A DNA stretch of 32,000 bases from Geotalea uraniireducens Rf4 (GTDB lineage: Bacteria; Desulfobacterota; Desulfuromonadia; Geobacterales; Geobacteraceae): assembly GCF_000016745.1 (NCBI RefSeq), contig NC_009483.1:2790001-2822000 (forward strand). The letters are read 5' to 3'. A program made the position numbers and the translations under genes. Positions 7,928 to 27,972 of this stretch are shown piece by piece. The notes under the pieces are model-generated. The model had not been told where the DNA came from. It saw nothing but the letters and a program-made list of their open reading frames with translations, and made no database searches. Numbering within the stretch: the stretch's first letter is position 1; each line of letters starts with the position of its first letter.

Positions 7928-7980
7928 GAAAACCTCGTTATGTATCACCAACACGGCGACAGATTGAAAAGTTCTTTTCT

Positions 7981-10601: not shown

Positions 10602-11033
10602 TCACAGCACCCTGATCTCATCCTGGGGCCTGACAACACCGCCCCTGACAACCTTGGCAAAGATTCCCTCTTTCGGCATGACGCAGTCTCCAGCCTGGTA
10701 ATAGATGGCGCAACGGGTATGACATTCCTTGCCGATCTGGGATATTTCAAGAAGCACCTCCCCGATGGCGAGTCTGGAACCGATCGGCAGGGCCGGCAGT
10801 TCGATCCCCTGCGTGGTGATGTTCTCGGCAAAGTCCCCTGCTCCCACATCTAGCCCCATCTTCTGCATCTTGCCTATGCTTTCCATGGCCAAGAGGCTGA
10901 TCTGGCGGTGCCACTCCCCGGCATGGCCGTCGCCGACTATGCCATGGTTCTCCCTGAGCAGAACCTCCGCCACGGGCGTCTTGCGCTCCCCTTTTTTCTC
11001 GCTGATACTGACTGCCACAACCTTCGGGGTCAT
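10602..11033 (-). CDS. MOSC domain protein (Moco sulfurase C-terminal domain family)
   Basis: 143 aa from the ATG at 11033 (GGAGG 7 nt upstream). MTPKVVAVSISEKKGERKTPV...GIVGDGHAG.WHRQISLLA...GDFAENITT.G...IGKECHTRCAIYYQAGDCVMPKEGIFAKV is typical of stand-alone MOSC proteins. The track's upstream extension runs through the heptad repeat. Confidence 0.8.
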   Translation of the reverse strand: MTPKVVAVSISEKKGERKTPVAEVLLRENHGIVGDGHAGEWHRQISLLAMESIGKMQKMGLDVGAGDFAENITTQGIELPALPIGSRLAIGEVLLEISQIGKECHTRCAIYYQAGDCVMPKEGIFAKVVRGGVVRPQDEIRVL

Positions 11034-11126: not shown

Positions 11127-12107
11127 TCACCCACCGATTTGCGACATGGCCACCGAGCCATGCGCCGTTTCATCTTCCGCCAGATGGTGACGGCCCGGCT
11201 TTCCCGTGACGATCCGCCGCAGTGTTTCCCGCAAAGGCCCATTGTCGGCTCCATGCAGAAGAGGCTTGAGATCAACCCCATTATCGGCAAACAGGCATCC
11301 CCGCAACAGACCTGATGCGGTTACCCTGATGCGGTTACAGCTATCGCAGAAGTGACCGGATATCGGCGTGATGATACCGATGGCCCCTGCCGAGCCTCTG
11401 ATTTTGAAGTTTCTGGACGGACCCGCCATTTCATTACCGACCAGCGGCAATAACGGATAATGCCGGCCGATGCGCTCAAGGATCTCACTCCCGGCCATGC
11501 ATTGGGAGTTCCACCCCTTATCCCTGAGGGTCGGCATGTATTCAATGAAGCGGACCGTGTACGGCTTATGGATAGTCAGTGCAGCGAAGTCCAGCAGCTC
11601 GTCGTCGTTGATCCCCTTCATGACGACCATGTTGATCTTCACCGGAGGAAAACCGGCCTCCTCCGCAGCGGCAATGCCGTCCACAACCTTGCGGAGATCC
11701 CCGCCTCGGGTAATCCGGGCAAAAGTCTCGGGCTTCAACGAATCTAGGCTGATGTTCAGACGCTGCGCCCCCGCCTGTCGCAAGGGAATGGCCAACTCGC
11801 CGAGAAGCAAACCATTTGTGGTAAGAACCAGCTCCTTGAGGCCGGGTATATCCGCCAGTCGCCCTATGAATTGGACCAGTCCCTTCCTGACGAGCGGTTC
11901 TCCGCCGGTAACCCGGATCTTTTCAATCCCCAGGGCAACAGATTCGCAGGCCACGCGATATAAATCCTCATAACTCAGCATCTCTCCATGCTGTAGCTTG
12001 GGGATTCCCTCGGCCGGCATGCAGTAACTGCAGCGCAGATTGCATCGATCCGTAACGGATAACCTGAGGTAATTTATGCGCCGGCCATATGAATCAATCA
12101 GTTCCAT
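11127..12107 (-). CDS. moaA: GTP 3',8-cyclase MoaA (radical SAM, molybdopterin biosynthesis step 1)
   Basis: ELIDSYGRRINYLRLSVTDRCNLRCSYCMP...TGGEPL...LTTNG..., with a C-terminal ...SQIGG. Start is uncertain: the ATG at 12107 gives the usual MoaA N-terminus, while the track uses TTG at 12128. Confidence 0.9.
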   Translation of the reverse strand: MELIDSYGRRINYLRLSVTDRCNLRCSYCMPAEGIPKLQHGEMLSYEDLYRVACESVALGIEKIRVTGGEPLVRKGLVQFIGRLADIPGLKELVLTTNGLLLGELAIPLRQAGAQRLNISLDSLKPETFARITRGGDLRKVVDGIAAAEEAGFPPVKINMVVMKGINDDELLDFAALTIHKPYTVRFIEYMPTLRDKGWNSQCMAGSEILERIGRHYPLLPLVGNEMAGPSRNFKIRGSAGAIGIITPISGHFCDSCNRIRVTASGLLRGCLFADNGVDLKPLLHGADNGPLRETLRRIVTGKPGRHHLAEDETAHGSVAMSQIGG

Positions 12108-12189
12108 ATCAATCCAGTTCCAAGTCAATCATCGCCCAGCAGGAAATATCTTTGAAAATCCCGATTAGCACCAATCTTCCGCTGAGAGA

Positions 12190-14082: not shown

Positions 14083-14099
14083 TGCCTTCAGCTCGCAAC

Positions 14100-14230
14100 A
14101 AACACATCATCTCCGAGCCTTTCAGCCTAAAAGGATAAACCTCATGGCGCCCGGCCAACGGGTTTCGCTGGAAACAGCGGAGCCTCCCTTTCGGAAAGGA
14201 GACCTATCCGCTCAGCGGATTTTAAAACAT
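14100..14230 (+). ncRNA. Moco (molybdenum/tungsten cofactor) RNA motif riboswitch candidate
   Basis: CAUCUCCGAGCCUUUCAGCC...GCUGGAAACAGCGGAGCCUCCCUUUCGGAAAGGAGA contains the blocks I associate with the Moco motif (CUCCGAGCC 5' junction, a GNRA-capped internal hairpin, GCCUCCC, AAAGGAG closing a helix with the 5' CUCC). A short hairpin auccgc-uca-gcggau plus U4 follows at 14206-14223. It sits directly upstream of a pterin-cofactor enzyme gene. Confidence 0.6.
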
Positions 14231-14248: not shown

Positions 14249-15979
14249 ATGGACAAAATTTTACGCGTAAACATGACCGACCTGACCACCAAGCTTGAGA
14301 CAGTGCCCACCGAATGGGCCGGTCTCGGCGGCCGCGGTCTGACCTCCACCATCGTCGCCGCAGAAGTGCCGGCCGACTGTCACCCCCTCGGACCCAACAA
14401 CAAGCTGGTATTTGCTCCGGGACTCCTTACCGGCACCGCCGCTGCCAACTCCGGCCGTCTCTCCGCCGGGGCCAAGAGCCCGCTCACCGGTGGCATCAAG
14501 GAAAGCAACGCCGGCGGCACCGCAGCACAGATGCTGGCCCGTCTCGGCATCAAGGCACTGATCATCGAAGGGCTCCCAAAAGCGGACAAATGGTACAACC
14601 TCCATGTGAACAAGGACGGCGTGACCATCCAGGAAGAAACGGAACTGCTCGGCAAGGGTAATTTCGCGGTAATAGAGGACCTTGAGGCCCGCCTGGGGAA
14701 GAAAACCGGCGTCCTGACCATCGGCCCTGCCGGTGAGTTGAAGATGACCGCCGCCAACATCTCCGTCAAGGACCCGGACAGCAAGATCCGCAGCCACGGC
14801 CGTGGCGGTCTCGGCGCAGTCATGGGCTCCAAGAAAATCAAGTACATCTCCATCGACGACGCCGGCGCTCCCGGAATCAAGATTGCCGATCCGGAAAAAT
14901 TCAAGGTGGCGGCAAGAACGTTCGCCAAGGCCCTGCTCGACCACCCGGTCAGCGGCGAAGGTCTCCCCACATACGGCACCAACGTGCTGGTCAACATCCT
15001 CAACGAGGCGGGCGGTCTGCCGACCCGCAACTTCACCGTAGGCCAGTTCGAAGCCCATGACAAGATCTCCGGCGAGACCATGCACGATACCATCGTCGCC
15101 CGCGGCGGCAAGCCGAAGCATGGCTGCCACGCCGGTTGTATCATCCAGTGCTCCCAGGTATACAACGACAAGGACGGCAAATACGTAACCTCCGGCTTTG
15201 AGTACGAAACCATCTGGGGACTGGGGGCCGACTGCTGCATCGACAACCTGGACGATATCGCCCGCGCCGACAACCTCATGGACGACATCGGCATCGACTC
15301 CATCGAAACCGCCGTCATGTTCGGCGTGGCCATGGAAGCCGGCATCCTCCCATTCGGGGACAGCAAGGAAATGCTCCGCCTCCTTACCGAGGAAATCGGC
15401 AAGGGAACCCCGCTCGGCCGCATCCTCGGCGGCGGCGCCGGTTCGGTAGGCAAGGCCTACGGCGTCACCAGAGTCCCGGTGGTGAAAAACCAAGGCATTC
15501 CGGCCTATGATCCCCGCTCGGTCAAAGGGATCGGCATCACCTACGCCACCAGCACCATGGGCGCCGACCACACCTCCGGCTATACCATAGCCACCAACAT
15601 CCTCAACGTCGGCGGATATGTGGATCCGCTGAAGAAAGACGGCCAGGTCGAGCTTTCCCGCAATCTGCAGATTGCCACCGCTGCCGTAGATTCCACCGGC
15701 ATGTGCATCTTCATCGCCTTCCCTGCCCTGGACATCCCCGAGTGCCTGCCGGCCCTGATCGACATGATCAACGCCCGTTTCGGCATCAACCTGACCGGTG
15801 ACGACGTCACCAACCTGGGCAAGCATATCCTGAAGGTGGAGCATCAGTTCAATATCGAGGCGGGTTTCACCAACAAGCACGACCGTCTCCCGGAATTCTT
15901 CAAGACCGAACCGGTGGCGCCCCACAATGCAGTATGGGATTTCACCGATGCAGAGATCGACGAGTTCTGGAATTTCTAG
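14249..15979 (+). CDS. aor: Aldehyde:ferredoxin oxidoreductase (AOR family, tungsto-/molybdopterin enzyme)
   Basis: 576 aa. AFOR N-domain (ILRVNMTDL...GLGGRGL...GPNNKLVFAPGLLTG...RLSAGAKSPLTGG.KESNAGG), Cys cluster KHGCHAGCIIQC, and C-domain motifs (GMCIF, DRLPEFF). Confidence 0.9.
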   Translation: MDKILRVNMTDLTTKLETVPTEWAGLGGRGLTSTIVAAEVPADCHPLGPNNKLVFAPGLLTGTAAANSGRLSAGAKSPLTGGIKESNAGGTAAQMLARLGIKALIIEGLPKADKWYNLHVNKDGVTIQEETELLGKGNFAVIEDLEARLGKKTGVLTIGPAGELKMTAANISVKDPDSKIRSHGRGGLGAVMGSKKIKYISIDDAGAPGIKIADPEKFKVAARTFAKALLDHPVSGEGLPTYGTNVLVNILNEAGGLPTRNFTVGQFEAHDKISGETMHDTIVARGGKPKHGCHAGCIIQCSQVYNDKDGKYVTSGFEYETIWGLGADCCIDNLDDIARADNLMDDIGIDSIETAVMFGVAMEAGILPFGDSKEMLRLLTEEIGKGTPLGRILGGGAGSVGKAYGVTRVPVVKNQGIPAYDPRSVKGIGITYATSTMGADHTSGYTIATNILNVGGYVDPLKKDGQVELSRNLQIATAAVDSTGMCIFIAFPALDIPECLPALIDMINARFGINLTGDDVTNLGKHILKVEHQFNIEAGFTNKHDRLPEFFKTEPVAPHNAVWDFTDAEIDEFWNF

Positions 15980-16046: not shown

Positions 16047-16271
16047 ATGCATATCACCGTCAAGCTATTCGCCACATTCAGAAACGGAAGATTCAAGGTC
16101 GCTCAACAGGAGCACCCGGACGGGACCGACTGCCGAAAGATCGTCCTGGAACTGGGCCTGACCGAAGAAGAGATAGGCATCATCCTGGTCAACAGCCGTC
16201 ACGCCACCCTTGATCATCTGCTGCAAGACGGTGACACCCTGGCCCTCTTTCCCCTGGTCGGCGGAGGTTGA
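16047..16271 (+). CDS. moaD: MoaD/ThiS-family sulfur-carrier protein
   Basis: 74 aa, a beta-grasp-sized protein ending ...DTLALFPLVGGG (C-terminal Gly-Gly). Confidence 0.75.
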   Translation: MHITVKLFATFRNGRFKVAQQEHPDGTDCRKIVLELGLTEEEIGIILVNSRHATLDHLLQDGDTLALFPLVGGG

Positions 16272-16272
16272 T

Positions 16273-17121
16273 ATGAACAACATACTGTATTTTCTTCAGG
16301 AACGGCTGTCGGACGGCCTTCTTTCCTGGGCAGCGCAAAAAGAAGCTGCCGAACTGTTCGGCTTGAGCTACGCAACCGTCGAAGAGCTGGCCCTGGAAAA
16401 CGGCATGTTCCCTGCCAGGTACCAGCGCAACCGGAACATGATATCCGTCACGGAACAGTTGAAGTTGTACCGAAGCAAGGTCGCCGTGATCGGTTGCGGC
16501 GGTCTTGGCGGCTATATCATCGAGGAACTGGCCCGGCTCGGCATTGGCGGAATCGTAGCCATCGATCCGGACATATTCGAAGAACACAACCTGAACCGGC
16601 AACTGCTCTCCTCCCCCGGCGCCCTGGGGAAAGCCAAGGTGGAAGCAGCACTGGCACGGGTCAACGAGGTCAATCCGGCGGTGACGGTAACCCCGATCAA
16701 GGACGCTTTCTGCACGGCCAACGGCCCGGAACTCCTGAAGGGGGTGACCGTAGCGGTCGATGCCCTGGACAGCATCGCCTACCGTCTTGAACTGGCTGAA
16801 ACCTGCACGGAACTGGAAATCCCCATGGTTCACGGGGCGATCGGCGGCTGGTACGGTCATGTGGCCACCCAGTTACCCGGCGACACCACGGTGCAGAGCA
16901 TCTATCGCAACTGGGTTGAAGGAAAAGGGATTGAGAAGCAGTTAGGGAACCCGGCATTTACCCCGGCTGTAGTGGCAAGCCTGGAAGTGGCCGAAGTCTG
17001 CAAGATCATACTGGGCAAGGGTGAACTGTTGCGCAACCGGAAGCTCAGCATCGACCTGCTGGACATGGAAATCCACGAGATAAGCTATGATGTGCCGGTA
17101 GAATTGGTCAGCGCAGCATAG
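16273..17121 (+). CDS. ThiF/MoeB/HesA-family E1-like adenylyltransferase
   Basis: The ATG at 16273 lies 1 nt after the moaD stop; the track start at 16210 overlaps moaD. KVAVIGCGGLGGYIIEELARLGIG.IVAIDPD.FEEHNLNRQ is the ThiF nucleotide-binding signature. Confidence 0.8.
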   Translation: MNNILYFLQERLSDGLLSWAAQKEAAELFGLSYATVEELALENGMFPARYQRNRNMISVTEQLKLYRSKVAVIGCGGLGGYIIEELARLGIGGIVAIDPDIFEEHNLNRQLLSSPGALGKAKVEAALARVNEVNPAVTVTPIKDAFCTANGPELLKGVTVAVDALDSIAYRLELAETCTELEIPMVHGAIGGWYGHVATQLPGDTTVQSIYRNWVEGKGIEKQLGNPAFTPAVVASLEVAEVCKIILGKGELLRNRKLSIDLLDMEIHEISYDVPVELVSAA

Positions 17122-17474: not shown

Positions 17475-18737
17475 ATGCGTAACAGATTAATTTCCATGCT
17501 GGCAGCGGCCATGCTGCTGACAGCAACCACAATAACACCGGCCGAGGCAGCGTTCGTCATCGGTGGAGAAAACGGCTGGCAGCTCAGCACAGACGGTATC
17601 GTCGACGTTTTCTCCGTCTATCAGTCTACCAGTCCAGCGCCTGCAGGCGCAGACGGCTCTAAGAGATTCACCTCTTTTCTCAGTGGTTCCACTGATCAGT
17701 TCCAGAATTTCGGGGTGAAGGTAGGGCTTCTGCCGTCGTTAATCGCATTCAACATCAAGGCCCCCACCGTCAATGGGGTCGACTCGAACGTACGGGTCGG
17801 TATCTATCCGAGTATTCAGAATAAGAACCAGGACACCAGATTTGAAGTCAATCCCAACATCGATTTCCGGGAATTCTACTACACCGCAAAGGGGACATAC
17901 GGCGAATTGCTTGCCGGCCGTGCCCTGAACCTTTACCAGGCGAAAAACATCCTGACCGACATGACGCTCCTTACGGCAGGCGTTGTTCCGGCACCCGGCA
18001 CCTCCACGACCCTGGGCCATATCGGCTACGGCTACCTCTACACCAACTTCGGCCCCCAGATCCGTTACACCACTCCCGATCTTAACGGCGTCAAGGTGGC
18101 CTTCAGTGTCAACGAGCCTTACAAGATCAGTTCCGATACCGCCAAGACCAACACCCCGCGCCTCGAAACCGAGATCTCCTACGCCACGGTCCTGAACGGC
18201 GGCACTACGCTGCAGGCTTGGGCGTCCGGCCTCTTCGAGACTGCAACCCGCAGTAAAGCGGCTGGCGTAGCACGTCCGGGTGAGCAGAACCAATCCATCG
18301 GCGGTGCGGCCGGCATCGAAGCCGGCTTCAGCGGCGTCGATCTTATGGCGTCCGGTTACGCCGGCGAGGGGCTCGGCATGATCAGTGCGCAGGACGGCGA
18401 TGCGTTCGGTTCCTCATCGACGGATGCCGCCGGCAAGGAGCGGACCCATTTCGGCTTCCTGGTCCAGGCGACCTACAAGCTGACCCCCGATATCAAGATC
18501 GGAGCCAACTACGGGCAAAACCGCCAGGTAGAAAGCGATGACGACAAGACCAAGCGCGGCGTAGGCGGTTCCTTCTCCCCCATGAAGAAACAGGAAGCGG
18601 CAGTGGGCATGGTCACTTACAACTTCAACAAGTTCACACAATTCATCGTTGAGTACGCCTATGCCCAGAACACCTGGCATGACCGCGCCACGCAGCATTC
18701 CAACAGCGTTGCGATAGGCACGATGTTTTACTGGTAG
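17475..18737 (+). CDS. Outer-membrane porin (beta-barrel)
   Basis: 420 aa. Signal peptide MRNRLISMLAAAMLLTATTITPAEA/AF. Gly/Asn/Tyr-rich alternating strands and a C-terminal ...AIGTMFYW aromatic terminus. GGAGGA precedes the ATG. Confidence 0.8.
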   Translation: MRNRLISMLAAAMLLTATTITPAEAAFVIGGENGWQLSTDGIVDVFSVYQSTSPAPAGADGSKRFTSFLSGSTDQFQNFGVKVGLLPSLIAFNIKAPTVNGVDSNVRVGIYPSIQNKNQDTRFEVNPNIDFREFYYTAKGTYGELLAGRALNLYQAKNILTDMTLLTAGVVPAPGTSTTLGHIGYGYLYTNFGPQIRYTTPDLNGVKVAFSVNEPYKISSDTAKTNTPRLETEISYATVLNGGTTLQAWASGLFETATRSKAAGVARPGEQNQSIGGAAGIEAGFSGVDLMASGYAGEGLGMISAQDGDAFGSSSTDAAGKERTHFGFLVQATYKLTPDIKIGANYGQNRQVESDDDKTKRGVGGSFSPMKKQEAAVGMVTYNFNKFTQFIVEYAYAQNTWHDRATQHSNSVAIGTMFYW

Positions 18738-18774
18738 GCCGGCCCTGAGACGGGTTGAGCAACAAACGTGATAT

Positions 18775-18814
18775 AAAAAAAAGAGGGTGGCCGATATGGG
18801 CCATCCTCTTTTTT
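18775..18814. terminator. Bidirectional intrinsic terminator between the convergent porin and radical SAM genes
   Basis: aaaaaaaa-agagggtggcc-gatat-gggccatcctct-tttttt: a GC-rich stem flanked by an A-run and a T-run. Confidence 0.7.
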
Positions 18815-18845
18815 CACTCCTTATTCAACCTTAAATCCGACCTGT

Positions 18846-20150
18846 TCAATGTTTTTCTGACACCGGCCTGAGTTTTATATCCTGCAAAATATATGTCTCC
18901 AGGGCCGCATCGAGATAATCCTTCCTGCAATCCACCCCGTCGATCCTGCCGTCCCGCAGCAGCTTGAGGAATCTGCACCCGCCAAAGCATATGGGGAGGT
19001 AGGCGCAGTCGAGGCATGCATCGTTTTTCCACAGGTCGAGCTTGTGCGAATCACGGTAATCCTGAATACCTGTGCGCAGATCACCGACGGCAAATTCCTT
19101 CCTGCCGATGAAGGCAGGGCATTTGTAGATGGTCCCGTCAAAACCGACGATGATGTTATCGGGAGCTTCCACCATGCAGGAGGAGGACCTTATCTTGGGG
19201 GTGTTGAAGCCGCGCTTCAGAATCTCTTGACGGAGGAACAGACTCGCCTCGATGAGCCATGGTTCTTCGGTGGAATCGCACCCTTCCCTGAATTCAGGGA
19301 GGCCGTACTCGGCCATGGTACTAGTCACGGGGGCGAACATGACCATCGCCAGCTTGTCCGGTGTGATCCCCTCTGCCAGGATATGGTCGAGGAGGCGGGG
19401 AAACTCCCGGTAATTATCGCGGGTGTAATTTCCGGTAAACTGGATCCCGACTAACTCACAGGTGGCCTTGACGTTCCTGACGATTGAGTCGAAAGAGCCG
19501 GCACCCGATACGAAAGGCCTGAACGCATCATGGATCTCCCGCGGCCCGTCAATGGTCACCTTTGCCTTGCGCAGCCCAAGTGGCACAAGCTCCCTGGCCA
19601 GTTCCGCGGTCAAAAGGGTCCCATTCGTGACCAGGTTGAAGGTGTACTCCCCTCCCCTCTTTTCCACGAGAGGCTTCAATCTCCCGGATACGTACCTGAT
19701 CAGGTCAACGCTCAGGAGCGGCTCCCCGCCGTAAAAATCAAGGTCAACGGACTTGCCTGCGGCGAGATGATTCTTTTCGACAAAATCGATGAAGAGGTCC
19801 GCCGTCTCCAGCGTCATGTAGCGTTTCCCCTTCAAACCACCTTCATAGCAGTAAGTGCAGTCCAGGTTGCAGTCCATGTTCAGGACCAGCATGGCGTTGA
19901 ACTCCCTGCCGGCGCGGTTTGTCCGGTCGAAAAGCGTGAGCATTTCCTGCCGCTCGTCATGATCGTCGGGGACCAGGAAGCCAAGGCGGTGCAAGGTCTC
20001 CTGGTTGGCCTGAGAGAGCGTGCCTTCTCTTGCCGCCTTTAACGTAGCTTCGTTGAGCAGTATGACGGACGCACGTCTGGTGGAATAAAGGAGGGAGTAA
20101 CCTGGCTTTTCCGCGTAAGGATAGATTTTGATGTATCGAGAAAGTCGCAT
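18846..20150 (-). CDS. Radical SAM/SPASM peptide-maturase-like enzyme with N-terminal RRE-sized extension
   Basis: 434 aa. CNLDCTYC at Cys94/98/101, preceded by about 90 residues (MRLSRYIKIYPYAEKPGYSLLYSTRRASVILLNEATLKAAREG...LHRLGFLV...). C-terminal SPASM pattern SSCMVEAP...GTIYKCPAF...CLDCAYLPICFGGCR...DCRKDY. No Shine-Dalgarno sequence before the ATG at 20150. Confidence 0.85.
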   Translation of the reverse strand: MRLSRYIKIYPYAEKPGYSLLYSTRRASVILLNEATLKAAREGTLSQANQETLHRLGFLVPDDHDERQEMLTLFDRTNRAGREFNAMLVLNMDCNLDCTYCYEGGLKGKRYMTLETADLFIDFVEKNHLAAGKSVDLDFYGGEPLLSVDLIRYVSGRLKPLVEKRGGEYTFNLVTNGTLLTAELARELVPLGLRKAKVTIDGPREIHDAFRPFVSGAGSFDSIVRNVKATCELVGIQFTGNYTRDNYREFPRLLDHILAEGITPDKLAMVMFAPVTSTMAEYGLPEFREGCDSTEEPWLIEASLFLRQEILKRGFNTPKIRSSSCMVEAPDNIIVGFDGTIYKCPAFIGRKEFAVGDLRTGIQDYRDSHKLDLWKNDACLDCAYLPICFGGCRFLKLLRDGRIDGVDCRKDYLDAALETYILQDIKLRPVSEKH

Positions 20151-20160
20151 AATGGAATGG

Positions 20161-20182
20161 AAAAAGGGGAGAAGTTCTCCCC
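20161..20182 (-). terminator. Terminator-like hairpin (attenuator) between the peptide ORF and the maturase gene
   Basis: Minus-strand GGGGAGA-acu-UCUCCCC followed by UUUUU. It lies 27 nt after the peptide stop and 10 nt before the maturase ATG. Confidence 0.55.
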
Positions 20183-20209
20183 TTTTTGGTTAGAAGCTGT
20201 TAGAAGGAT

Positions 20210-20329
20210 TTACCTGTAGATGGCATAAAATCCCGTGCAGCATATTACCGGGCCTGTTGGCGCCATGCCGGCGTCGAGGATCACGATGAACTCCTGCCCT
20301 ACTGCAACCTTTTTACCCTTCACTTTCAT
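20210..20329 (-). CDS. 39-aa candidate RiPP precursor peptide (absent from the ORF track, which lists nothing under 60 aa)
   Basis: Minus strand reads AAGGAGG-ctgac-ATG (ATG 20329-20327), stop TAA at 20212-20210. Hand translation, codon by codon: MKVKGKKVAVGQEFIVILDAGMAPTGPVICCTGFYAIYR. Lys-rich N-terminus, a hydrophobic leader-like stretch, and a Gly/Pro/Cys/aromatic C-terminus. It sits immediately upstream of the rSAM/SPASM gene. Confidence 0.6.
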   Translation of the reverse strand: MKVKGKKVAVGQEFIVILDAGMAPTGPVICCTGFYAIYR

Positions 20330-20406
20330 GTCAGCCTCCTTGGTTGGTTATAATTGCCCCCGCAAATGAGGGCATAAAAACATGGACTAAAAGCCGCCCA
20401 CGACGG

Positions 20407-22305
20407 CTAGAACCTGAACCTGACCCCACCCTCGAACCACCTGCCCGGGGTCCTGAACTCCGAAAAGTAGAACTGGGAGCTGTTGAAGAGGTTGCGGGCG
20501 CTGAAAAACGTCTCGACCGTCCGACCATCCCCGGTAAATATTTTTTTCGCCAGGTAAAGGTCCCAGATGAAGGCATTGTGCGCCGTGTCGGCATCCCATC
20601 CGATGTAATGCCCCCTCAGGTTTCCCGAGAAGGACCGCTGGTCGTCGTACTGAAGGCCGATATCGTAAGTTATACGGCCAGCGCCCGTCACCCTTTCACC
20701 GGTGTCCCGATCTCTCAAATCGACAAAGGCAAACCCCGCCAGAAGGGACATATTGTACAAGGGAAGGCTCTTCAATTCCACCTCCCCCCCCTGTTTACGT
20801 TGCCTTCCGTTGTTGATTATCCTGATCGAATCATTGCCTGTTGTTTCGAAAGCGAGCACGTCCGTTACGTCATGGCGGAACAGGGTGGTCTTAAGCCAGA
20901 GGTATCTGACGGGGGCCGATTCCAAGCCGACTTGGTACGACCAGACTTTCTCCATCTTCAGGCCGGGGTTCGGCAGGGAGAAGAGACCGGTGCCGAAGGT
21001 GGCGAAAAGGGGAGGAATGCTGAACCCCCGGGCAACGGAGGCCCGCAGAATGGTGCTTTCCGCCGGAGTATAGGTCACGCCAAAACTTGGGCTGAAGAAA
21101 TTGCCGTTGGTGCTCGTCTGGTCATAACGGATGCCGGGGGTGAAGGAAAATTTGTCGATGGCGATGGTGTCGTTGGTAAACAGCGCCCACTTTTCAAGGC
21201 GTTGTTTACCATTGCTCATGGTGTCGGATTGCAGGTCCCTGTTGGTACTATCAAGTTCCCGGTTGTCGTAATCGGCGCCGACCAGAAGGTTGTGCATCCC
21301 CTGCCGCCAGACAAGTTTGGCGCTCCCGCCGATGGTCGCCTCGTCCCCGCTCATTTTCGTCACCGGGGCACCGGTACTGAACCGGCTCCGGAAAAAATCG
21401 TCGTGCTGCTTCAGCCCCCTGGCGGAGAGATGCAGATCCAGGTTGTCGGACAGGGCGTGGTCCAAAGCCAGGGTGGTAAAGAGATGCTCGAAGTCATTTC
21501 GGATAGAAAAGTCGTACACCTGCGACTCACCTGCTCCACGTGTGCCGTAGATGTATCCCAGAGTGAAGAGAAGGCCGGTCTTGTCGGTCGGCTCCCAGCG
21601 TAGTTTGGTGTAGACGTTGTTCCCGTCGAAGGAGGTGCTTGGGGTGAGGCCGTCGGAAAGGAGCTTGCCGGTGGAGAGGTAATAGCCCAAATCGCCGGAC
21701 TTGCCGGAGGCCTCACCCCGGTAGTCGCCGGTATTTCTGTCGCCAATGGAGGCGGAGGCCGTGCCGCCGAAGACGCGCATCTCATCCGGCGACTTGGTGA
21801 TGACGTTGATGACGCCGCCGAGCGACGACCCCCAGGAGGATGACGCCGGCCCCTTGATGATCTCGACCTTTTCGATCTCCTGGACAGGTAGTGAGCCGAA
21901 ATCGGCAGCATTGTCGGACAGGTTGTTCAATGTCACGCCGTCGATCATCACCAGCACATGGCGGAATTCGGAACCCTGAACGAAGATATTTGCTATGCTG
22001 CCGGAGCCGCCCCGGCTATCCACCTGCACGCCGGGGATATAGTTGAGGATGTCGGTCAGGGTATGGGCATTGATCGCCTCGATCTCTGCGGCGGTGACGA
22101 CGGTGATGTTCTCCGCCACCTGGGCAATCGGCTTGGGATAACGGGTTGCAGTTTCCACGAGGTCTTTTTCCTTGTAAAACATCTGCAGTACCTTCAGTTC
22201 TTCTTCAGGCTCATCCGGCTGGGCATAGAGCGGAGTAGGAAGATAAAAGGCGATTGACAACACATATAAAAACAAGAATGTTCTTTTCAAAGAATTCCTA
22301 TACAT
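20407..22305 (-). CDS. TonB-dependent outer-membrane receptor
   Basis: Signal peptide MYRNSLKRTFLFLYVLSIAFYLPTPLYA/Q from the ATG at 22305. Plug motifs (ENITVVTAAEIEAINAHTLTDILNYIPGV, IEKVEIIKGPASSSWGSSLGGVINVITK). A long barrel ending ...GGVRFRF. The track start at 22365 adds 20 non-signal residues and lies upstream of the predicted -10. Confidence 0.85.
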   Translation of the reverse strand: MYRNSLKRTFLFLYVLSIAFYLPTPLYAQPDEPEEELKVLQMFYKEKDLVETATRYPKPIAQVAENITVVTAAEIEAINAHTLTDILNYIPGVQVDSRGGSGSIANIFVQGSEFRHVLVMIDGVTLNNLSDNAADFGSLPVQEIEKVEIIKGPASSSWGSSLGGVINVITKSPDEMRVFGGTASASIGDRNTGDYRGEASGKSGDLGYYLSTGKLLSDGLTPSTSFDGNNVYTKLRWEPTDKTGLLFTLGYIYGTRGAGESQVYDFSIRNDFEHLFTTLALDHALSDNLDLHLSARGLKQHDDFFRSRFSTGAPVTKMSGDEATIGGSAKLVWRQGMHNLLVGADYDNRELDSTNRDLQSDTMSNGKQRLEKWALFTNDTIAIDKFSFTPGIRYDQTSTNGNFFSPSFGVTYTPAESTILRASVARGFSIPPLFATFGTGLFSLPNPGLKMEKVWSYQVGLESAPVRYLWLKTTLFRHDVTDVLAFETTGNDSIRIINNGRQRKQGGEVELKSLPLYNMSLLAGFAFVDLRDRDTGERVTGAGRITYDIGLQYDDQRSFSGNLRGHYIGWDADTAHNAFIWDLYLAKKIFTGDGRTVETFFSARNLFNSSQFYFSEFRTPGRWFEGGVRFRF

Positions 22306-22331
22306 AACATTTAATGTTGTGATATTAAACC

Positions 22332-22382
22332 TTGCCAACGAGCCTTTTTCGGGTATTATACTCATCCAAAGTTATTTGTCTA
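22332..22382. promoter_or_regulatory. Compact divergent sigma-70-like promoter pair with overlapping -10 hexamers
   Basis: Plus strand: TTGCCA (22332-22337)-16 nt-TATTAT (22354-22359). Minus strand: TAGACA (22382-22377)-16 nt-TATAAT (22360-22355). A 13-bp palindrome, aacatttaatgtt (22306-22318), abuts the receptor ATG. Prediction by eye only. Confidence 0.3.
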
Positions 22383-22396
22383 TAGTGGACTCATTA

Positions 22397-23293
22397 ATGG
22401 TTAAAATTTTTTCGATAATAATACTTTCACTGACACTCTTTCAGGAAACGGCGGCAGGCTCCCAGGAAGTCGTGGTTGTCCAGAGCCTCAGGGTCAAACC
22501 GTATGATGACGCCCTGCGGGGCTTCAAATCCGTGTATGCCGGCAAGATCAAAAAGCTGATCCTCCCGGAAACGGAAGGAGCGGATGCCGTCAGGACGGTG
22601 CGCGAGGCAAAGCCGGGCATGATCCTCGCCATCGGGGCGGAAGCCCTGGCGAAGGTCAGAAGGATCAAAGACATACCCATCGTTTATCTCATGGTATTGA
22701 ATCCGCACGCCCCCCTCCAGGGTGAAGAGAACATCACCGGCGTCAGCATGAGTATTCCTCCGGAAAAGCAGTTAGCAGCGCTACAGAAGGTCCTGCCCAA
22801 TGTCCGGAGAGTCGGGCTCCTCTATGACCCGGCCAAAACCGGCTTTCTTGTCAAAAAAGCGCAGCTTGCCGCCAGGGCAGCGGGCATCGAGCTTGTGGCA
22901 AAGGAAGTGCACAGGCCGAAGGATGTCCCGGAGCTGGCAAACAGCATGAAGGAGCATATCCAGGCTTTCTGGATGTTCCCCGACACCACGGTGGTTACAC
23001 CGGAAACCGTCAATTTCCTGCTTCTCTTTTCCATGGAAAACAGGATACCCATGTTCGCCTTTTCCAACAAATACGTGGAGGCGGGAGCTCTGATGTCCCT
23101 GGACATAGACGCTTTCAACCTGGGGAAACAGGCCGGGGAAGCGGCCGGGAAAATATTGTCCGGCGCCGATGTAAGGGAAATTCTTAGGTTCGATGCAAAG
23201 AACGCGGTTTTGACGATCAATGTCAAGACGGCAAAAAAAATGGGTATAACCGTCAGCGATGAAGTCATGACCAAGGCCAGGAAGGTGAGGTAA
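22397..23293 (+). CDS. Periplasmic substrate-binding-protein-like protein (ABC_sub_bind/PF04392-like fold), no cognate permease or ATPase nearby
   Basis: From the ATG at 22397: MVKIFSIIILSLTLFQETAAGSQ signal peptide, then VVVVQSLRVKPYDDALRGFKS...AIGAEAL...VGLLYDP...FWMFPDTTV...AGALMSLDID, typical of this SBP family. Its stop lies 5 nt before the kinase ATG. Confidence 0.65.
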   Translation: MVKIFSIIILSLTLFQETAAGSQEVVVVQSLRVKPYDDALRGFKSVYAGKIKKLILPETEGADAVRTVREAKPGMILAIGAEALAKVRRIKDIPIVYLMVLNPHAPLQGEENITGVSMSIPPEKQLAALQKVLPNVRRVGLLYDPAKTGFLVKKAQLAARAAGIELVAKEVHRPKDVPELANSMKEHIQAFWMFPDTTVVTPETVNFLLLFSMENRIPMFAFSNKYVEAGALMSLDIDAFNLGKQAGEAAGKILSGADVREILRFDAKNAVLTINVKTAKKMGITVSDEVMTKARKVR

Positions 23294-23298
23294 GTGTG

Positions 23299-25269
23299 AT
23301 GAAAATATCCTTCCCATTTTTAAAAAAACAGCATGAGAGTTTCAGCACAAGGATATTCTTCCTTTTCAACATTTTCATCATAGTTATTTCCGTGTCGTTC
23401 ACCGCATTCTTTTTCCAGCAGCAGCGCAAGGCTCTGAAACAAGGCCTGACGAATGAAGGGGTGTTGCTTGCCAAGCTCCTGGCGTACAATTCAAGGCTTG
23501 GCGTCTATGTCGAAAATGAGGAACTGCTGAGTGACGCCGTTGACGGCATCGTACGGCACAAGGAAGTGCTGTTCGTTTCGATACATACCCTGACGGGAAC
23601 CCCCCTGAAGGAGCAAGGGCGAAAGCCTTCCGCAAGGGCCGGTGAAACGGCTGCATCCAATTGGCAAGCCAAGGCTGATCTGCTGAAAATAAACCGGGAG
23701 CCCCTTGTCGTGGAAGGCGTCGACACCTTCGAATTCCTGGCGCCGGTGGTTTCAAGCCCGGCTTATGCATCGGAAGAGGCCCTGCTTACAGATGAAAGCC
23801 CCTTTAAACCCAAAGAGCGCATCATCGGCTTTGTGCGGCTCATTCTCGACAAAAAATTTCTCGACCAGCGGCTGCAGACCCTCCTGTTTACCAGCATTCT
23901 CCTGGCGCTTGTCTTCCTGGTATCCGGCTCGATCATCACCTATCTCATCGTAAAGGGAATCACCCAGCCGCTCAACAGGTTGACGGCAGGGGTCAAGGCC
24001 CTGGGGACCGGCGGGACTTTCAATAAGATACCGGTCGAGACCAGGGATGAAATCGGCAACCTGGCAACCGCCTTCAACACCATGTCCGAGTCTCTGCAAA
24101 ACAGGGAAGCCGAGAAACAGCACCTTGAAGAACAACTCCGCCATTCGCAAAAGATGGAAGCCATCGGTACGCTTGCGGGCGGCGTTGCCCATGACTTCAA
24201 CAACCTCCTCACCGTTATAACGGGTTTCGGCAATCTCATGCAGATGAATCTGCAAGAAGACACCCAATTAATGACCTACGCCGACCAGATACTAATTGCA
24301 AGCGACCGTGCGGCGGTTCTTACCAAGAGGCTTCTTACGTTCAGCAGAAATCAGATCATCAATCCCAGCCCGATGAATATCAACGTGATCATCAAGAGCC
24401 TGGAAAACATATTGGTGAGGGTTATCAGCGAGGATGTGGAGTTTAAAGTCGATCTGGGCGGAGAAAATCTGACCGTCATGACCGATTCCGGCTTGATCGA
24501 CCAGATAATCATAAACCTGGCCGCCAATGCCCGTGATGCAATGCCCAATGGCGGAATGCTGACGATCCGGACAAATATTGCCGAGCTGGGCGGGGAATCA
24601 CTGTCGCCGGGCGACCACGGAAAACCAGGGAAGTACGCACTGATAACGGTCACAGATACGGGTTCGGGAATGGAAGAAGAAACCGTGGAAAGAATCTTTG
24701 AACCCTTCTTCACCACCAAAGAGGTCGGCAAGGGAACGGGACTGGGACTTTCGATGGTCTACGGATTAGTCAAGCAGCATAAAGGTGTCATAAGAGTCGA
24801 AAGCGCACTTGGCCGTGGGACAACCTTCCGGATATATCTTCCATTAATCGAGTCATCGGCAGAGGAAAAAAAATCGGAAACCTTATGCTTTCCCAAGGGC
24901 AATAATGAAACATTATTGGTGGCAGAGGACGACAAACTGGTCATGGGACTTACCAGGGAGATACTGGGAAAGCATGGCTACAGGATAATCGAAGCAGCAG
25001 ACGGGGAAGATGCGGTCGCTAAATTCACGGAAAATGCAGACAGAATCGAGATGGTTTTACTTGACGTCATCATGCCGAAAAAAAACGGCAAAGAAGTCTT
25101 CGAGGAGATAAAAAAGATAAAGCCCGGCATCAAGACCCTCTTTATGAGCGGCTACACAAACGACATCATAGCCGGCAAAGGGGTCATTGAAGAGGGGATA
25201 AACTTCATCTCAAAACCGGTCCAGCCCGGCGAGCTTTTGCATAAAATAAAAGAAGTGCTGCAGCAATGA
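23299..25269 (+). CDS. Hybrid sensor histidine kinase (TM-periplasmic domain-TM-HAMP-HisKA-HATPase-REC)
   Basis: Two TM segments flank a periplasmic region of about 170 aa. HAMP ([15 protein letters not shown]...[13 protein letters not shown]), H-box [13 protein letters not shown] boxes ([26 protein letters not shown]), and a C-terminal receiver (LLVAEDD...[10 protein letters not shown]...LFMSGY). Confidence 0.9.
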
Positions 25270-25311
25270 TCTCTATCGCTCCATCTGGTCCTGCATCGAG
25301 ATGCGGTTGTG

Positions 25312-25470
25312 TCAATCATCCCCCTCATCTCCAGCGCTTTTGTCGATCTTCGGTGGCTCCTTTTTTTGCCTGATGTAGAAATAAATGATGACAAACAGAA
25401 CAAGTACGATAATCGCCGCAACAAGCCAGCTGAATGTAAACCCAAACCATTCCCCTTTGACGTCTGTCAT
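25312..25470 (-). CDS. Small single-TM membrane protein (52 aa), hypothetical
   Basis: MTDVKGEWFGFTFSWLVAAIIVLVLFVIIYFYIRQKKEPPKIDKSAGDEGDD from the ATG at 25470. One hydrophobic helix and an acidic tail. Confidence 0.4.
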   Translation of the reverse strand: MTDVKGEWFGFTFSWLVAAIIVLVLFVIIYFYIRQKKEPPKIDKSAGDEGDD

Positions 25471-25504
25471 GACCTTAACCCCCTTTTCAGTGGATTGCGC
25501 TCCA

Positions 25505-25771
25505 TCAGTCCTCACGTTTCACGGTTTTATAGGCAGAATCAGGGTCGCATTCGGGACGCAGATACCGCTCCAGATCATCAAACAGCTCATCGGCCATCAA
25601 ATGGATTGCCTCCACCTTGTCAAAATCCGGCGGCATCGCTTGTGCGAGATAAGCATCATGCATCTGCGCAATGGAAGTCTTCAAGTCGCGCAGCCTGCAA
25701 TATACAATCTCAAGCTCCCGATACTCACTCTCCCCTAGTTCCTCCAGCATTTTCGTATCCATTTTCTCCAT
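25505..25771 (-). CDS. Hypothetical acidic protein (88 aa)
   Basis: The ATG at 25771 is preceded by AAGGAGGAAGG. MEKMDTKMLEELGESEYRELEIVYCRLRDLKTSIAQMHDAYLAQ... is predicted helical. No family recognised. Confidence 0.45.
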   Translation of the reverse strand: MEKMDTKMLEELGESEYRELEIVYCRLRDLKTSIAQMHDAYLAQAMPPDFDKVEAIHLMADELFDDLERYLRPECDPDSAYKTVKRED

Positions 25772-25896
25772 TATGCCTTCCTCCTTCTCCGGCCCAATAG
25801 GGAACTCCATTCTTGAATTTTACCACTAAAACAGGTGTCCACTAGTTTTTGATTCGGAAAGCGGGGGAGTATTTGTTATGGAGTCCTGGCAAGAAA

Positions 25897-25926
25897 ATAG
25901 AAAAGCCCGCACAAAGCGGGCTTTTA
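25897..25926 (-). terminator. Intrinsic terminator after the PBP1A gene
   Basis: agcccgc-acaaa-gcgggct is flanked by an A-run and a T-run. On the minus strand the stem is followed by UUUUCUAUUUU. Confidence 0.7.
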
Positions 25927-25968
25927 CGTTGGGCGAAACAGGAGGGAAACCCCGAATTCCAAAGAGGC

Positions 25969-27972
25969 TTACCGGCTGCTGACAGGCTGCTGCCCTTCTG
26001 CATTCGGCAGAGTCGGGGGTGGAGTTATCGGATTGAGGGGATCTCCGCCGTGCTTGGGACAGTTCGAGGTCGGCTGGGTACCCGAAATATAAAACTCGTC
26101 CCGTTTTTCCGGACAGTCCGCATTCGCCGGATAGCCTGTTGTCGGGTCAATGGAAACGGAAACGACCGTATCCGGTTTCGGGAAGTCAACGGCAGGTCTG
26201 GCGGACAACGCCGTGCGCATGAACCGTTCCCAGATAGGGGCAGCGACAGCCCCTCCCGTAAAGCCTTTACCCCCCGGCCGGGGCTTGTCATACCCCACCC
26301 AGATGCCGGTTATCACCTGTGGAGTATAGCCTACAAACCAGGCATCCCGATAATCATCGGTGGTGCCGGTCTTCCCTGCGGACGGATGTTCCTGACTGAA
26401 TTTTTTCAGAGATTTGGCGGTGCCGTACACCATGACGTCCTTAAGCATACGGGTTGTGACAAAGGCGGCAGCCGGCGACAGGGCCGGGGTGACTAACGGA
26501 GGATTTTCCGCCCAGGCCCGCCGATTGCGATCATAAATACGGATAATGGTTCGTGGTTCGGTCCGCAAGCCACCGTTGGCCAAGGGGGTGTAAGCCCGTA
26601 CCAGATCGTGCAAGGTGACCTCATCCGTGCCCAGAGCCAGGGAGAGACCATTCTGTGCCCGTAACGGCAGCCCAGTTTTCCCGGCAAAATCGACAAAATA
26701 CGGGACCCCGATGGTCTCCAGCAACTTTACCGTAACGACATTGTTCGAGTAGGCCAGGGCCTGCCTGAGGGAAAGCTCCCCATACTGTTCCCTGCCATAG
26801 TTCAGCGGCTGCCAGATTTCATTATTGCCACGATTGTAGGCTGCAGGCGTATCGTTCCAGATGCTGGCGGCAGTAATCCCTTTTTCCAGGGCCGCGGCAT
26901 AGATCAGCGGTTTGATGGCCGAGCCGGGCTGACGCCTGGCATAAAAGGCGCGGTCATAGCCGCTCTTGCTGAAATCGACTCCCCCGACAGCCGCCAGCAG
27001 ATCCCCTGTAGCGGGGTCCAGGCTCACCAATGCGCCCTGCAGCTGTGGCGAAATCCGTTTAACCCCTTCACGCAAGGTCTTTTCCGCCAGCTTTTGCAGG
27101 TTCAGATCCATGGCCGCGGTTACTTCCAGCCCGCCCTGTTCAACGATCTCCTTGCCGTAGCGCTCGATCAGTTTGTTGCGGACATGCGCCGTGTAGTACG
27201 GGGCCTGACCGGGTTGGGTAAAGGTGACGCGCTGGCCTCTCAGTTTCTGCTTCTGCCGGGGAGTGATGATTTTGAGCTCAGCCATCCGTTTGAGGACCAC
27301 ATCCCTCCGCCCCGCTACGTTGGCCGGTTTTCCCAAAGGATTGTAGCGCCCCGGGTTCTTCGGCACTCCGGCCAAAAGGGCGCATTCCGCGTCGGTCAAC
27401 TCCTCCGGCCTTTTATCAAAATAGAGACGGACAGCCTGGGCAATCCCCCAGGCGCCATTCCCGTAATAGATTTCGTTTAAATACATCTCCAGGATCTGCT
27501 TCTTTGTGTACTTCTTTTCAAACTCAACGGCCATGAGGCCTTCCTTGAGCTTCCGGTCGATGGTCTTCTCCCCGGATAAATACTTGTTCTTGATCAGTTG
27601 CTGGGTGATCGTCGATCCCCCCTCGGCCAGCTTCCCTTTCACCACATCCTTCACCAACGCACGTGCGATCCCGCGGATATCGATCCCGCCATGTTCATAA
27701 AAGCGGGAGTCCTCAACAGCCACCACCGCCTTTTGCAGGAAAGCGGGAATACGGTCAATGGAAACCCAGTATCTTTTTTCCGGCATGATCCGGCCGACGA
27801 ACCGCCCTTCTCTGTCAAAGACTTTAATGGAGGTATAGGCGGACGGCAGGAGGGGATAGGTGGCGATTGATTCCTGGGCCCGGGCCGATGGGACGAGGCA
27901 TAAGACAAGGAAAAGGCCTAAGATCATGGAATATAATGCTTCTTTGAGAAGCGAGGGAAAATGGGAAAACAA
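25969..27972 (-). CDS. mrcA: Class A penicillin-binding protein 1A (bifunctional glycosyltransferase/transpeptidase)
   Basis: 667 aa. GT51 motifs (EDSRFYEHGGID, GGSTITQQL, RKLKE). Transpeptidase motifs SAIKP (SxxK), YSNN (SxN) and KTGTT. N-terminal TM anchor. Start TTG at 27972 as in the track; the start is uncertain. Confidence 0.9.
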   Translation of the reverse strand: MFSHFPSLLKEALYSMILGLFLVLCLVPSARAQESIATYPLLPSAYTSIKVFDREGRFVGRIMPEKRYWVSIDRIPAFLQKAVVAVEDSRFYEHGGIDIRGIARALVKDVVKGKLAEGGSTITQQLIKNKYLSGEKTIDRKLKEGLMAVEFEKKYTKKQILEMYLNEIYYGNGAWGIAQAVRLYFDKRPEELTDAECALLAGVPKNPGRYNPLGKPANVAGRRDVVLKRMAELKIITPRQKQKLRGQRVTFTQPGQAPYYTAHVRNKLIERYGKEIVEQGGLEVTAAMDLNLQKLAEKTLREGVKRISPQLQGALVSLDPATGDLLAAVGGVDFSKSGYDRAFYARRQPGSAIKPLIYAAALEKGITAASIWNDTPAAYNRGNNEIWQPLNYGREQYGELSLRQALAYSNNVVTVKLLETIGVPYFVDFAGKTGLPLRAQNGLSLALGTDEVTLHDLVRAYTPLANGGLRTEPRTIIRIYDRNRRAWAENPPLVTPALSPAAAFVTTRMLKDVMVYGTAKSLKKFSQEHPSAGKTGTTDDYRDAWFVGYTPQVITGIWVGYDKPRPGGKGFTGGAVAAPIWERFMRTALSARPAVDFPKPDTVVSVSIDPTTGYPANADCPEKRDEFYISGTQPTSNCPKHGGDPLNPITPPPTLPNAEGQQPVSSR

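Follow-up and report, generated by a model that had tools for sequence, protein, structure and literature searches.

A stretch of 32,000 nucleotides from the genome of Geotalea uraniireducens Rf4 (NC_009483.1, positions 2,790,001 to 2,822,000 of the forward strand) was analysed; this whole stretch is referred to as the window, and coordinates are counted from its first letter. In the window, a short open reading frame (ORF) lies between a TonB-dependent receptor gene and a gene encoding a radical S-adenosylmethionine (SAM) enzyme with a SPASM domain. The short ORF and the enzyme gene constitute, with very little doubt, a precursor/maturase pair of the geopeptide system of Geobacter-like bacteria, which is already catalogued in TIGRFAMs/NCBIfam (TIGR04280 for the enzyme and TIGR04229 for the peptide) and is defined by computation only. 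A preliminary description of the window had proposed such a pair, and its statements on the sequence (39-codon ORF, AAGGAGG-N5-ATG, 59 nt to the enzyme gene, 434 aa, CNLDCTYC, SPASM cysteines, and about 90 residues ahead of the SAM cluster) were all reproduced. The features of the pair are as follows.

18846-20150, minus strand: geopeptide radical SAM/SPASM maturase, 434 aa (ABQ26604.1 / WP_011939294.1)
18927-19178, minus strand: SPASM region with seven Cys (C325, C344, C379, C382, C388, C392, and C408)
19848-19871, minus strand: radical SAM motif C94-x3-C98-x2-C101 (CNLDCTYC)
19896-20150, minus strand: N-terminal domain of the maturase (residues ~1-85), predicted three strands and then helices, similar to a peptide-recognition element (RRE)
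20210-20329, minus strand: geopeptide precursor gene, 39 aa, MKVKGKKVAVGQEFIVILDAGMAPTGPVICCTGFYAIYR, apparently absent from the GenBank annotation
20335-20341, minus strand: Shine-Dalgarno sequence AAGGAGG, 5 nt ahead of the peptide ATG

The enzyme matched TIGR04280 at 723.2 bits (cutoff 400, E 1e-217), with residues 1-427 aligned to profile positions 1-427 of 428, and RefSeq names WP_011939294.1 "geopeptide radical SAM maturase". The radical SAM motif and the SPASM pattern (C325-x13-G339-x4-C344, C379-x2-C382-x5-C388-x3-C392, and C408) were invariant in an alignment of 24 members, and the seven-Cys pattern fits two auxiliary [4Fe-4S] clusters. The next-best NCBIfam families (TIGR04463, CefB, PapB, nif11 maturase, and SCIFF maturase) all have Cys-rich peptide substrates and scored far under their cutoffs; with 110.1 bits for the SCIFF maturase model TIGR03974 (cutoff 425) and 139.9 bits for the PapB model NF047865 (cutoff 340), the enzyme belongs to neither of these families.

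The closest solved structure was CteB, the thioether maturase of SCIFF (sequence profile E 9e-32; Foldseek E 3e-18 over the full length), followed by the anaerobic sulfatase-maturating enzyme (anSME), SuiB, ChlB, and SkfB. The AlphaFold2 model of the whole maturase had a predicted local distance difference test (pLDDT) score of 78, and its N-terminal domain, at a pLDDT of ~90, comprised three strands (7-11, 18-23, and 28-33) followed by four helices (34-42, 47-55, 63-71, and 73-80). This domain is likely to be an RRE, judging from the model; of the earlier claim that the enzyme bears an RRE, the predicted strand-strand-strand-helix fold and the full-length match to CteB speak in favour.

The second-best structural match being anSME, an alternative was considered in which the enzyme is an anaerobic sulfatase-maturating or other non-RiPP SPASM enzyme (RiPP, a peptide made by the ribosome and modified after translation) and the small ORF beside it a product of chance. 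However, the anSME model TIGR03942 scored 68.6 bits against a cutoff of 349.45, the enzyme has an N-terminal domain of 85-90 residues that anSME lacks, Pfam scans of the larger ORFs in the window retrieved no sulfatase gene, and the small ORF is kept in 21 of 22 related loci. The family scores and the conservation of the ORF refute this alternative, leaving it a probability close to nil, and the enzyme is not a sulfatase maturase, a possibility raised in the preliminary description.

The precursor ORF occupies the position that defines the geopeptide system, between the stop codon of the receptor gene (20407) and the start codon of the radical SAM gene (20150), to which the 59-nt spacer was measured. 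It encodes a Lys-rich N-terminus, the leader motif FIVILDAG, an 8-residue linker, Cys30-Cys31, and the 8-residue tail TGFYAIYR. The arrangement AAGGAGG-N5-ATG (20327-20341, minus strand) occurs once in the 32-kb window, where 0.10 occurrences were expected by chance, and most related loci have AAGGAGG or GGAGG ahead of the peptide start. Against TIGR04229, the peptide scored 11.5 bits (E 0.21), which is under the cutoff of 30; the alignment was in register, pairing peptide residues 15-33 with positions 1-20 of the 22-position profile, from the leader motif to the Cys-Cys. This cutoff was passed by one of 10 peptides adjoining bona fide TIGR04280 enzymes (Geotalea toluenoxydans, 40.5 bits), so that the model covers a much narrower range than the enzyme family does. 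The sub-threshold score is probably the reason why the peptide was not annotated in GenBank. The accession numbers between those of the maturase (ABQ26604) and the hybrid kinase (ABQ26607) are two, which cover only the receptor and the binding protein, and thus the precursor gene appears to be missing from GenBank, in agreement with the preliminary description. In a sequence look-up, the exact peptide sequence was recorded solely in Logan and MetaClust.

Related loci were collected from species-representative genomes (L001-L007 and L018), metagenomes (L081-L090 and L128), and exact-protein look-ups (L161, L164, L166, L168, and L170-L173). The collections were scanned with back-translated patterns, which are generic SPASM and SAM motifs; among the matches listed, true family members numbered ~8 of the 80 genome loci and ~12 of the 80 metagenome loci, and other SPASM families were set aside. 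Relatives of the maturase number in the hundreds in groundwater and sediment metagenomes. A small ORF was found directly upstream of the maturase gene in all but one (L018) of the 22 loci having upstream DNA, and the 25 peptides from 24 loci shared one architecture with an invariant Cys-Cys. The hydrophobic strand motif ending in Gly (IVILDAG, IVVLDEG, IIVLDKG, or VIVLHKG) was present in 19 of 25 peptides and was separated from the Cys-Cys by 6-12 residues. The tail was 7-10 residues long in 23 of 25, often with Gly at the second position after the Cys-Cys and Arg or Lys near the C-terminus, while the N-termini ranged from strongly basic to strongly acidic. In close strains, the ORF remains open over 38-40 codons although its synonymous divergence (dS) is 0.36-0.79. 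Because the same architecture and position recur in 21 of 22 loci and the frame stays open at this dS, the small ORF is a real gene and not a chance ORF. With the enzyme's membership in TIGR04280, this conservation bears out the proposed precursor/maturase pair.

Several loci showed variants of the precursor. Very long Lys/Thr-rich N-termini of the KKKT type, giving totals of 56-79 aa, were found in two Nitrospirae-type or metagenomic loci (L003, 7709-7948; L083, 1348-1518), in which the Cys-Cys tail is present and the usual LDEG motif is absent. In L166, one maturase is flanked by two different precursors (8989-9093 and 10603-10704), MEKEEILILDEGDDSPIGPMAACCAVMFGPYRGF and MENEEIIVLEEFEESPDGPEVLCCSLTYLPLRG. 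A paralogous geopeptide system, the maturase of which is 54% identical, is located in L173, and its peptide (9737-9880), MKKKGIVVIDKGIKEGTGRSCCASAFIPYRS, is not called as a gene. In a close relative, this system and that of L164 appear to lie on one contig; the L173 locus was itself read from a different assembly. Upstream lies a perfect TTGACA-17-TATAAT promoter, which a palindrome, TTGACATTCAGGTCAA, overlaps; the stop codon of the maturase gene is overlapped by a 189-aa MFS fragment, and a sigma-54 response regulator and more kinase genes lie beyond the hybrid kinase.

The precursor and maturase genes adjoin genes for an outer-membrane receptor and a putative periplasmic sensor pair, which have the following positions.

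20407-22305, minus strand: TonB-dependent receptor, ~627-632 aa, with Pfam plug and barrel domains
22397-23293, plus strand: periplasmic binding protein of PF04392 (ABC_sub_bind), ~298 aa, with a signal peptide (Pfam E 8e-40)
23296-25269, plus strand: hybrid histidine kinase (ABQ26607.1; Pfam)

The receptor has a signal peptide, a plug, and a TonB-box-like DLVETAT (family consensus DLVVTPT; read from the sequence); an N-terminal signalling extension is lacking. A 22-strand barrel was predicted by AlphaFold2 (pLDDT 80). The receptor scored under the cutoff of every specific NCBIfam receptor family, and its fold is BtuB-sized (template modelling score 0.79-0.85, 19-20% identity), with Cir bound to microcin V among its structural neighbours. 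The name BtuB (vitamin B12 receptor), under which receptor homologs are listed at JGI, was rejected, with scores of 137 bits for TIGR01779 (cutoff 599.7) and 135 bits for NF007926 (cutoff 836); the absence of a cobalamin riboswitch from the window in the Rfam search also counts against this identity. For the binding protein, the top NCBIfam match was TrpX, at 99.8 bits far under the cutoff of 390, and no ABC permease partner was found. The kinase is composed of a first transmembrane segment, a periplasmic domain of ~150 aa, a second transmembrane segment (both segments read from the sequence), HAMP, HisKA, HATPase, and receiver domains. A weak sCache_4 match was obtained for its periplasmic part in relatives.

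All-against-all clustering of the ORFs from 19 loci retrieved only four conserved neighbourhood families, namely, the receptor, the maturase, the PF04392 binding protein, and the HAMP-containing hybrid kinase. All 22 loci have the receptor gene next to the peptide and maturase genes, on one strand or the other, and 16 of them also have the binding protein and kinase, the kinase gene always following the binding-protein gene. Gene order varies: in the window and L002, receptor, peptide, and maturase run co-linearly, with the binding protein and kinase divergent; L003 and L005 have the five genes co-linear; and the receptor is strung with the binding protein, divergent from peptide and maturase, in L004, L006, L082, and L086. 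Since the association persists through rearranged gene order and strand, there is good evidence for a functional link of the receptor to the peptide and maturase. The receptor link drawn in the preliminary description is thereby upheld by synteny, and its reading of the neighbourhood was incomplete, having missed the conserved binding protein and hybrid kinase at 22397-25269. In L084, the receptor, peptide, and maturase stand alone among housekeeping genes, and thus these three represent the minimal core. No inner-membrane transporter was conserved in the 19 neighbourhoods; therefore, the conserved genes suffice for periplasmic sensing but not for cytoplasmic uptake.

Two loci retain the receiving part only. 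In L169 (3886-9013), the receptor (51% identity), binding protein, and kinase are intact, and the peptide and maturase are absent; in L018 (2570-8504), the same three genes are intact, the maturase is internally deleted, and there is no peptide. These receiver-only loci fit the pattern expected of a shareable extracellular ligand.

The transcription signals proposed around these genes are listed below.

18788-18803, minus strand: terminator-like hairpin and T-run after the maturase stop codon
20161-20187, minus strand: 12-bp hairpin AAAAAGGGGAGA/UCUCCCCUUUUU and, after it, a T-run within the 59-nt peptide-maturase spacer, a candidate partial terminator
22332-22382, divergent: overlapping promoter-like sites, as consensus matches only

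The spacer hairpin has a minimum free energy of -17.6 kcal/mol (z = -3.26) and was also found in a terminator-like scan. Of 17 loci examined, 16 have a GC-rich hairpin in this spacer, with a T-run after it in ~13. It is likely that the hairpin causes partial termination, giving precursor transcripts in excess of enzyme transcripts. A weak terminator-like hairpin (20381-20402, minus strand) directly follows the receptor stop codon, and thus the peptide gene has a hairpin on each side. The 77-nt spacer separating receptor from peptide gave no sigma-70-like promoter in the scan. In the intergenic region ahead of the receptor, TAGACA-16-TATAAT (11 of 12 matches) points to the receptor operon and TTGCCA-16-TATTAT (10 of 12) to the binding protein and kinase.

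The divergence among close strains was evaluated by comparing the window with L164, L170, and L171/L172, and with the more distant L161. In the three close relatives, protein identity to the window reached 95-98% (PBP1), 96-98% (kinase), and 91-94% (binding protein), compared with 84-89% (receptor), 89-91% (maturase), and 49-69% (peptide). The dS values between the window and L171 were 0.09 for PBP1, 0.08 for the kinase, 0.16 for the binding protein, 0.40 for the receptor, 0.44 for the peptide, and 0.27 for the maturase, and the range over the close strains was 0.06-0.17 for the kinase and PBP1. Within genes, dS was 0.12-0.30 for the receptor plug, 0.44-0.86 for the barrel, and 0.35-0.49 for maturase residues 1-90. 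The block of receptor barrel, peptide, and maturase showed a synonymous divergence 3-5 times that of its flanks, with the excess extending to nonsynonymous changes; this divergence equals that of the block in L161. The DNA identity profile was 92-100% over 21750-27750, except for a few bins at 88-91%, and fell to 74-91% over ~19750-21750, a stretch that takes in the receptor barrel, peptide, and N-terminus of the maturase. The ratio of nonsynonymous to synonymous divergence was ~0.15 for all enzymes and 0.3-1.1 for the peptide, the tails of which read TGFYAIYR, TGALQIFR, FGAIMYYR, FGTFQIFR, and WGPYGAIY across these strains. The receptor barrel, peptide, and maturase look like a cassette with allele exchange or long persistence of alleles.

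A hypervariable core with old alleles would also suit a narrow-spectrum antimicrobial peptide, bacteriocin or microcin-like, which exploits the TonB-dependent receptor of competitors; many microcins enter through such receptors, and Cir with microcin V is among the structural neighbours noted above. Nevertheless, neither an immunity gene nor an exporter is conserved, a matching receptor gene would not be expected in the producer's own operon, and the binding protein and kinase would be left without a role. We consider an antimicrobial function very improbable.

Our principal reading is that the locus encodes a geopeptide, the product of which is recaptured through the receptor; as a whole, this statement was given a probability of about 0.5. 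An extracellular product recaptured by the receptor is slightly favoured, and thioether chemistry on the Cys-Cys, suggested by analogy, has about even odds. That the product is a signal rather than a metal carrier is a tentative proposal, held with less confidence than either. In the proposed mechanism, the RRE-like N-terminal domain of the maturase would dock the leader strand formed by the hydrophobic-LD(E/A)G motif, and the SAM cluster with the two auxiliary clusters would act on the Cys-Cys, with thioether links to residues of the 7-10-residue tail as the likeliest chemistry, as in the nearest relatives CteB and PapB. The spacer hairpin and T-run may keep peptide transcripts above enzyme transcripts. 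The product would exit the cell by a non-dedicated route and return to the periplasm through the cognate TonB-dependent receptor, where the binding protein would present it to the hybrid kinase, making it a peptide signal that the cell produces itself and admits through a TonB-dependent gate. Specificity types might be set jointly by the variable peptide, the receptor barrel, and the maturase. The conserved binding protein and hybrid kinase favour a signal-like reading over nutrient uptake.

Recapture could instead serve a metal carrier (chalkophore or siderophore-like), in which the modified Cys-Cys makes up a metal-binding site and the peptide is released, takes up a metal, and is recaptured by the receptor, with the binding protein and kinase reporting how much metal-peptide is available. 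The two Cys are invariant while the remaining core varies freely, and methanobactin precursors likewise have conserved Cys with a freely varying rest of the core. The dedicated receptor and periplasmic binding protein parallel MbnT and MbnE, the receiver-only loci resemble siderophore piracy, and the divergent receptor-product cassette parallels the pyoverdine/FpvA types of Pseudomonas aeruginosa. However, the conserved neighbourhood genes include no inner-membrane transporter, reductase, or metal-responsive regulator, the partner of the binding protein is a kinase and not a permease, and Pfam scans of the larger ORFs found no MbnB/MbnC-like genes in the window. In addition, PF04392 proteins with solved structures bind aromatic amino acids and not metal chelates (PMC10443332). 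A metal carrier is therefore considered unlikely, although it is a serious rival; the signal was ranked slightly above it because the conserved genes cover periplasmic sensing in full and none of them serves cytoplasmic uptake.

Several results weigh against the principal reading of a geopeptide recaptured through the receptor. There is no Sec or Tat signal in the peptide, and no exporter or leader protease was conserved in the ORF clustering of 19 loci. The only candidates for export near family loci were MacB-type pumps in L161 and L168 and the MFS fragment in L173. The generic BtuB-like fold of the receptor tells nothing of its ligand. Six of the 22 loci, including L084 with full 8-kb flanks, show neither binding protein nor kinase, and thus sensing by this pair is not obligatory. 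The Cys-Cys, the sole invariant feature of the peptide, is equally suited to a metal-binding product. Pfam gave no PqqD match at E <= 10 for 10 isolated N-terminal domains of the maturase, which is where the earlier claim of an RRE falls short. Amino-acid changes in the receptor were not significantly enriched in the predicted extracellular part (0.32 vs 0.26, p = 0.21); loop-directed selection on the receptor is consequently not claimed, and the divergence of the block looks like allele exchange rather than loop-focused selection. A full-text literature search retrieved no paper on the geopeptide family, the matches to "geopeptide" being "gageopeptide" lipopeptides. The description of the locus as an uncharacterised RiPP system accordingly holds as far as publications go and does not hold in that the system is catalogued and the enzyme named by RefSeq.

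The missing signal peptide, exporter, and protease would also agree with an intracellular product, a cofactor-like or regulatory peptide, with the receptor, binding protein, and kinase linked to it in another way, for example, through an external compound processed with the help of the peptide system. The SPASM systems of pyrroloquinoline quinone and mycofactocin yield intracellular cofactors, and the receptor fold is BtuB-like. By contrast, a core that is hypervariable in close strains is unlike a cofactor precursor, and the receiver-only loci argue for a receptor ligand from outside, from other cells. Divergence in close strains takes in the receptor barrel, the peptide, and the maturase as a whole, with its high N-terminal dS, which argues that the three co-vary, and no cobalamin riboswitch accompanies them in the window. 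An intracellular product was therefore regarded as improbable.

Concerning export, the preliminary description had noted that there was no protease or exporter in the window, and the Pfam scans of the larger ORFs agree. In L161 (9385-13987; maturase 86% identical), a MacB-type set (ABC, FtsX/MacB, MFP, and OEP) is inserted between the maturase and an outer-membrane-like gene, and this set is absent from the counterpart in the window (~18740-18846). A similar MacB-type set with a TetR gene lies just 3' of the maturase in L168. The MacB-type set may be an occasional exporter and is not conserved.

The system was compared with known ones. Relative to the catalogued geopeptide family, the enzyme is full-length above its cutoff and the peptide aligns in register, whereas the peptide score is sub-threshold. 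CteB/SCIFF (thermocellin) and PapB (freyrasin) share the CX3CX2C motif with a seven-Cys SPASM pattern, a domain N-terminal to the SAM core, and a short Cys-containing substrate encoded next door; their substrates have six Cys or CX3D repeats, compared with a single Cys-Cys here, and the geopeptide hosts are Gram-negative, with a TonB-dependent receptor in the system. In the methanobactin operon, too, the precursor is short, with a variable core and few conserved Cys, and is accompanied by its own TonB-dependent receptor and by a periplasmic binding protein, again with no matching ABC permease. The operon differs in using MbnBC instead of a radical SAM/SPASM maturase and, for regulation, a sigma/anti-sigma pair instead of a binding protein and hybrid kinase; the geopeptide system has no MATE exporter, and its receptor has no signalling extension. 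LuxP-LuxQ and TorT-TorS resemble the sensor pair in that a binding-protein gene lies beside that of a hybrid kinase with a periplasmic domain and the ligand is sensed in the periplasm with no cytoplasmic transport. Here, however, the binding protein is of PF04392, the LuxQ model scored 92 bits on the kinase (cutoff 1200), and an outer-membrane TonB-dependent gate stands ahead of the sensor. In the Itf cluster of Bacteroides thetaiotaomicron (radical SAM enzyme ItfD, precursor ItfA, and transporter ItfF; PMC11002830), a radical SAM RiPP cluster also has its own TonB-dependent transporter, but it has a YcaO enzyme and a C39-peptidase ABC exporter and no binding-protein/kinase pair. The Geobacter SPASM enzyme SbtM belongs to a different system with a selenopeptide substrate, and a 2014 survey of RiPPs in anaerobes listed a lasso cluster alone for this genome. 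Documented here for the geopeptide family are the receptor/binding-protein/kinase context, the receiver-only loci, and the divergence of the cassette.

The window also contains a tungsten/molybdenum enzyme island that is unrelated to the geopeptide module. A molybdenum/tungsten cofactor (Moco) riboswitch (14099-14217, plus strand, 62.3 bits) is located directly 5' of an aldehyde:ferredoxin oxidoreductase (AFOR) gene (14249-15979), near genes for MoaA (11127-12128), a MOSC-domain ORF, a ThiF/MoeB-like protein (16210-17121), and MoCF_biosynth (789-1616). A second radical SAM/SPASM enzyme (4529-5866, minus strand, 445 aa), with no N-terminal extension, matched TIGR04311 ("putative metalloenzyme maturase") at 635 bits (cutoff 400). 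It is related to the tungsten-oxidoreductase maturase and adjoins an HdrD/CCG-type Fe-S protein (5969-7954) and ETF genes (8096-9421 and 9501-10313). A link of the geopeptide module to AFOR, MoaA, the ThiF/MoeB-like gene, the Moco riboswitch, or the TIGR04311 maturase was rejected, as none is conserved beside other geopeptide loci. A 420-aa ORF (17475-18737, plus strand) with no Pfam or NCBIfam match looks like an outer-membrane protein because of its signal-peptide-like start and C-terminal ...MFYW; it is kept beside the ThiF-like gene in L161 (78% identity) and not in other geopeptide loci. A c-di-GMP-I riboswitch was found at 512-589 (minus strand, 47.5 bits against a gathering score of 35).

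The locus exemplifies a systematic annotation gap, in which the maturase is recognised and the precursor is left uncalled, owing to a curated peptide model of far smaller reach than the enzyme family. The comparative data make the geopeptide family testable through its three-gene core, the frequent sensor pair, the receiver-only loci, and the strain-level divergence of the cassette, and G. uraniireducens Rf4, being a cultured strain, is suited to testing. As a speculative and rather doubtful extension, geopeptides might be re-imported self-signals of Gram-negative anaerobes (Geobacteraceae, Nitrospirota, and Desulfobulbia), cross-linked by the radical SAM enzyme, let back in through the cognate TonB-dependent receptor, and sensed in the periplasm by the binding protein and hybrid kinase, with exchanged cassettes of peptide, receptor barrel, and maturase defining mutually exclusive "pherotypes" on which receiver-only genomes eavesdrop; if true, such peptide quorum sensing would have an architecture for which no Gram-negative counterpart is described. 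If the product is a re-imported signal or metal carrier, it would bear on the communication or trace-metal acquisition of Geobacter-type metal reducers in the subsurface.

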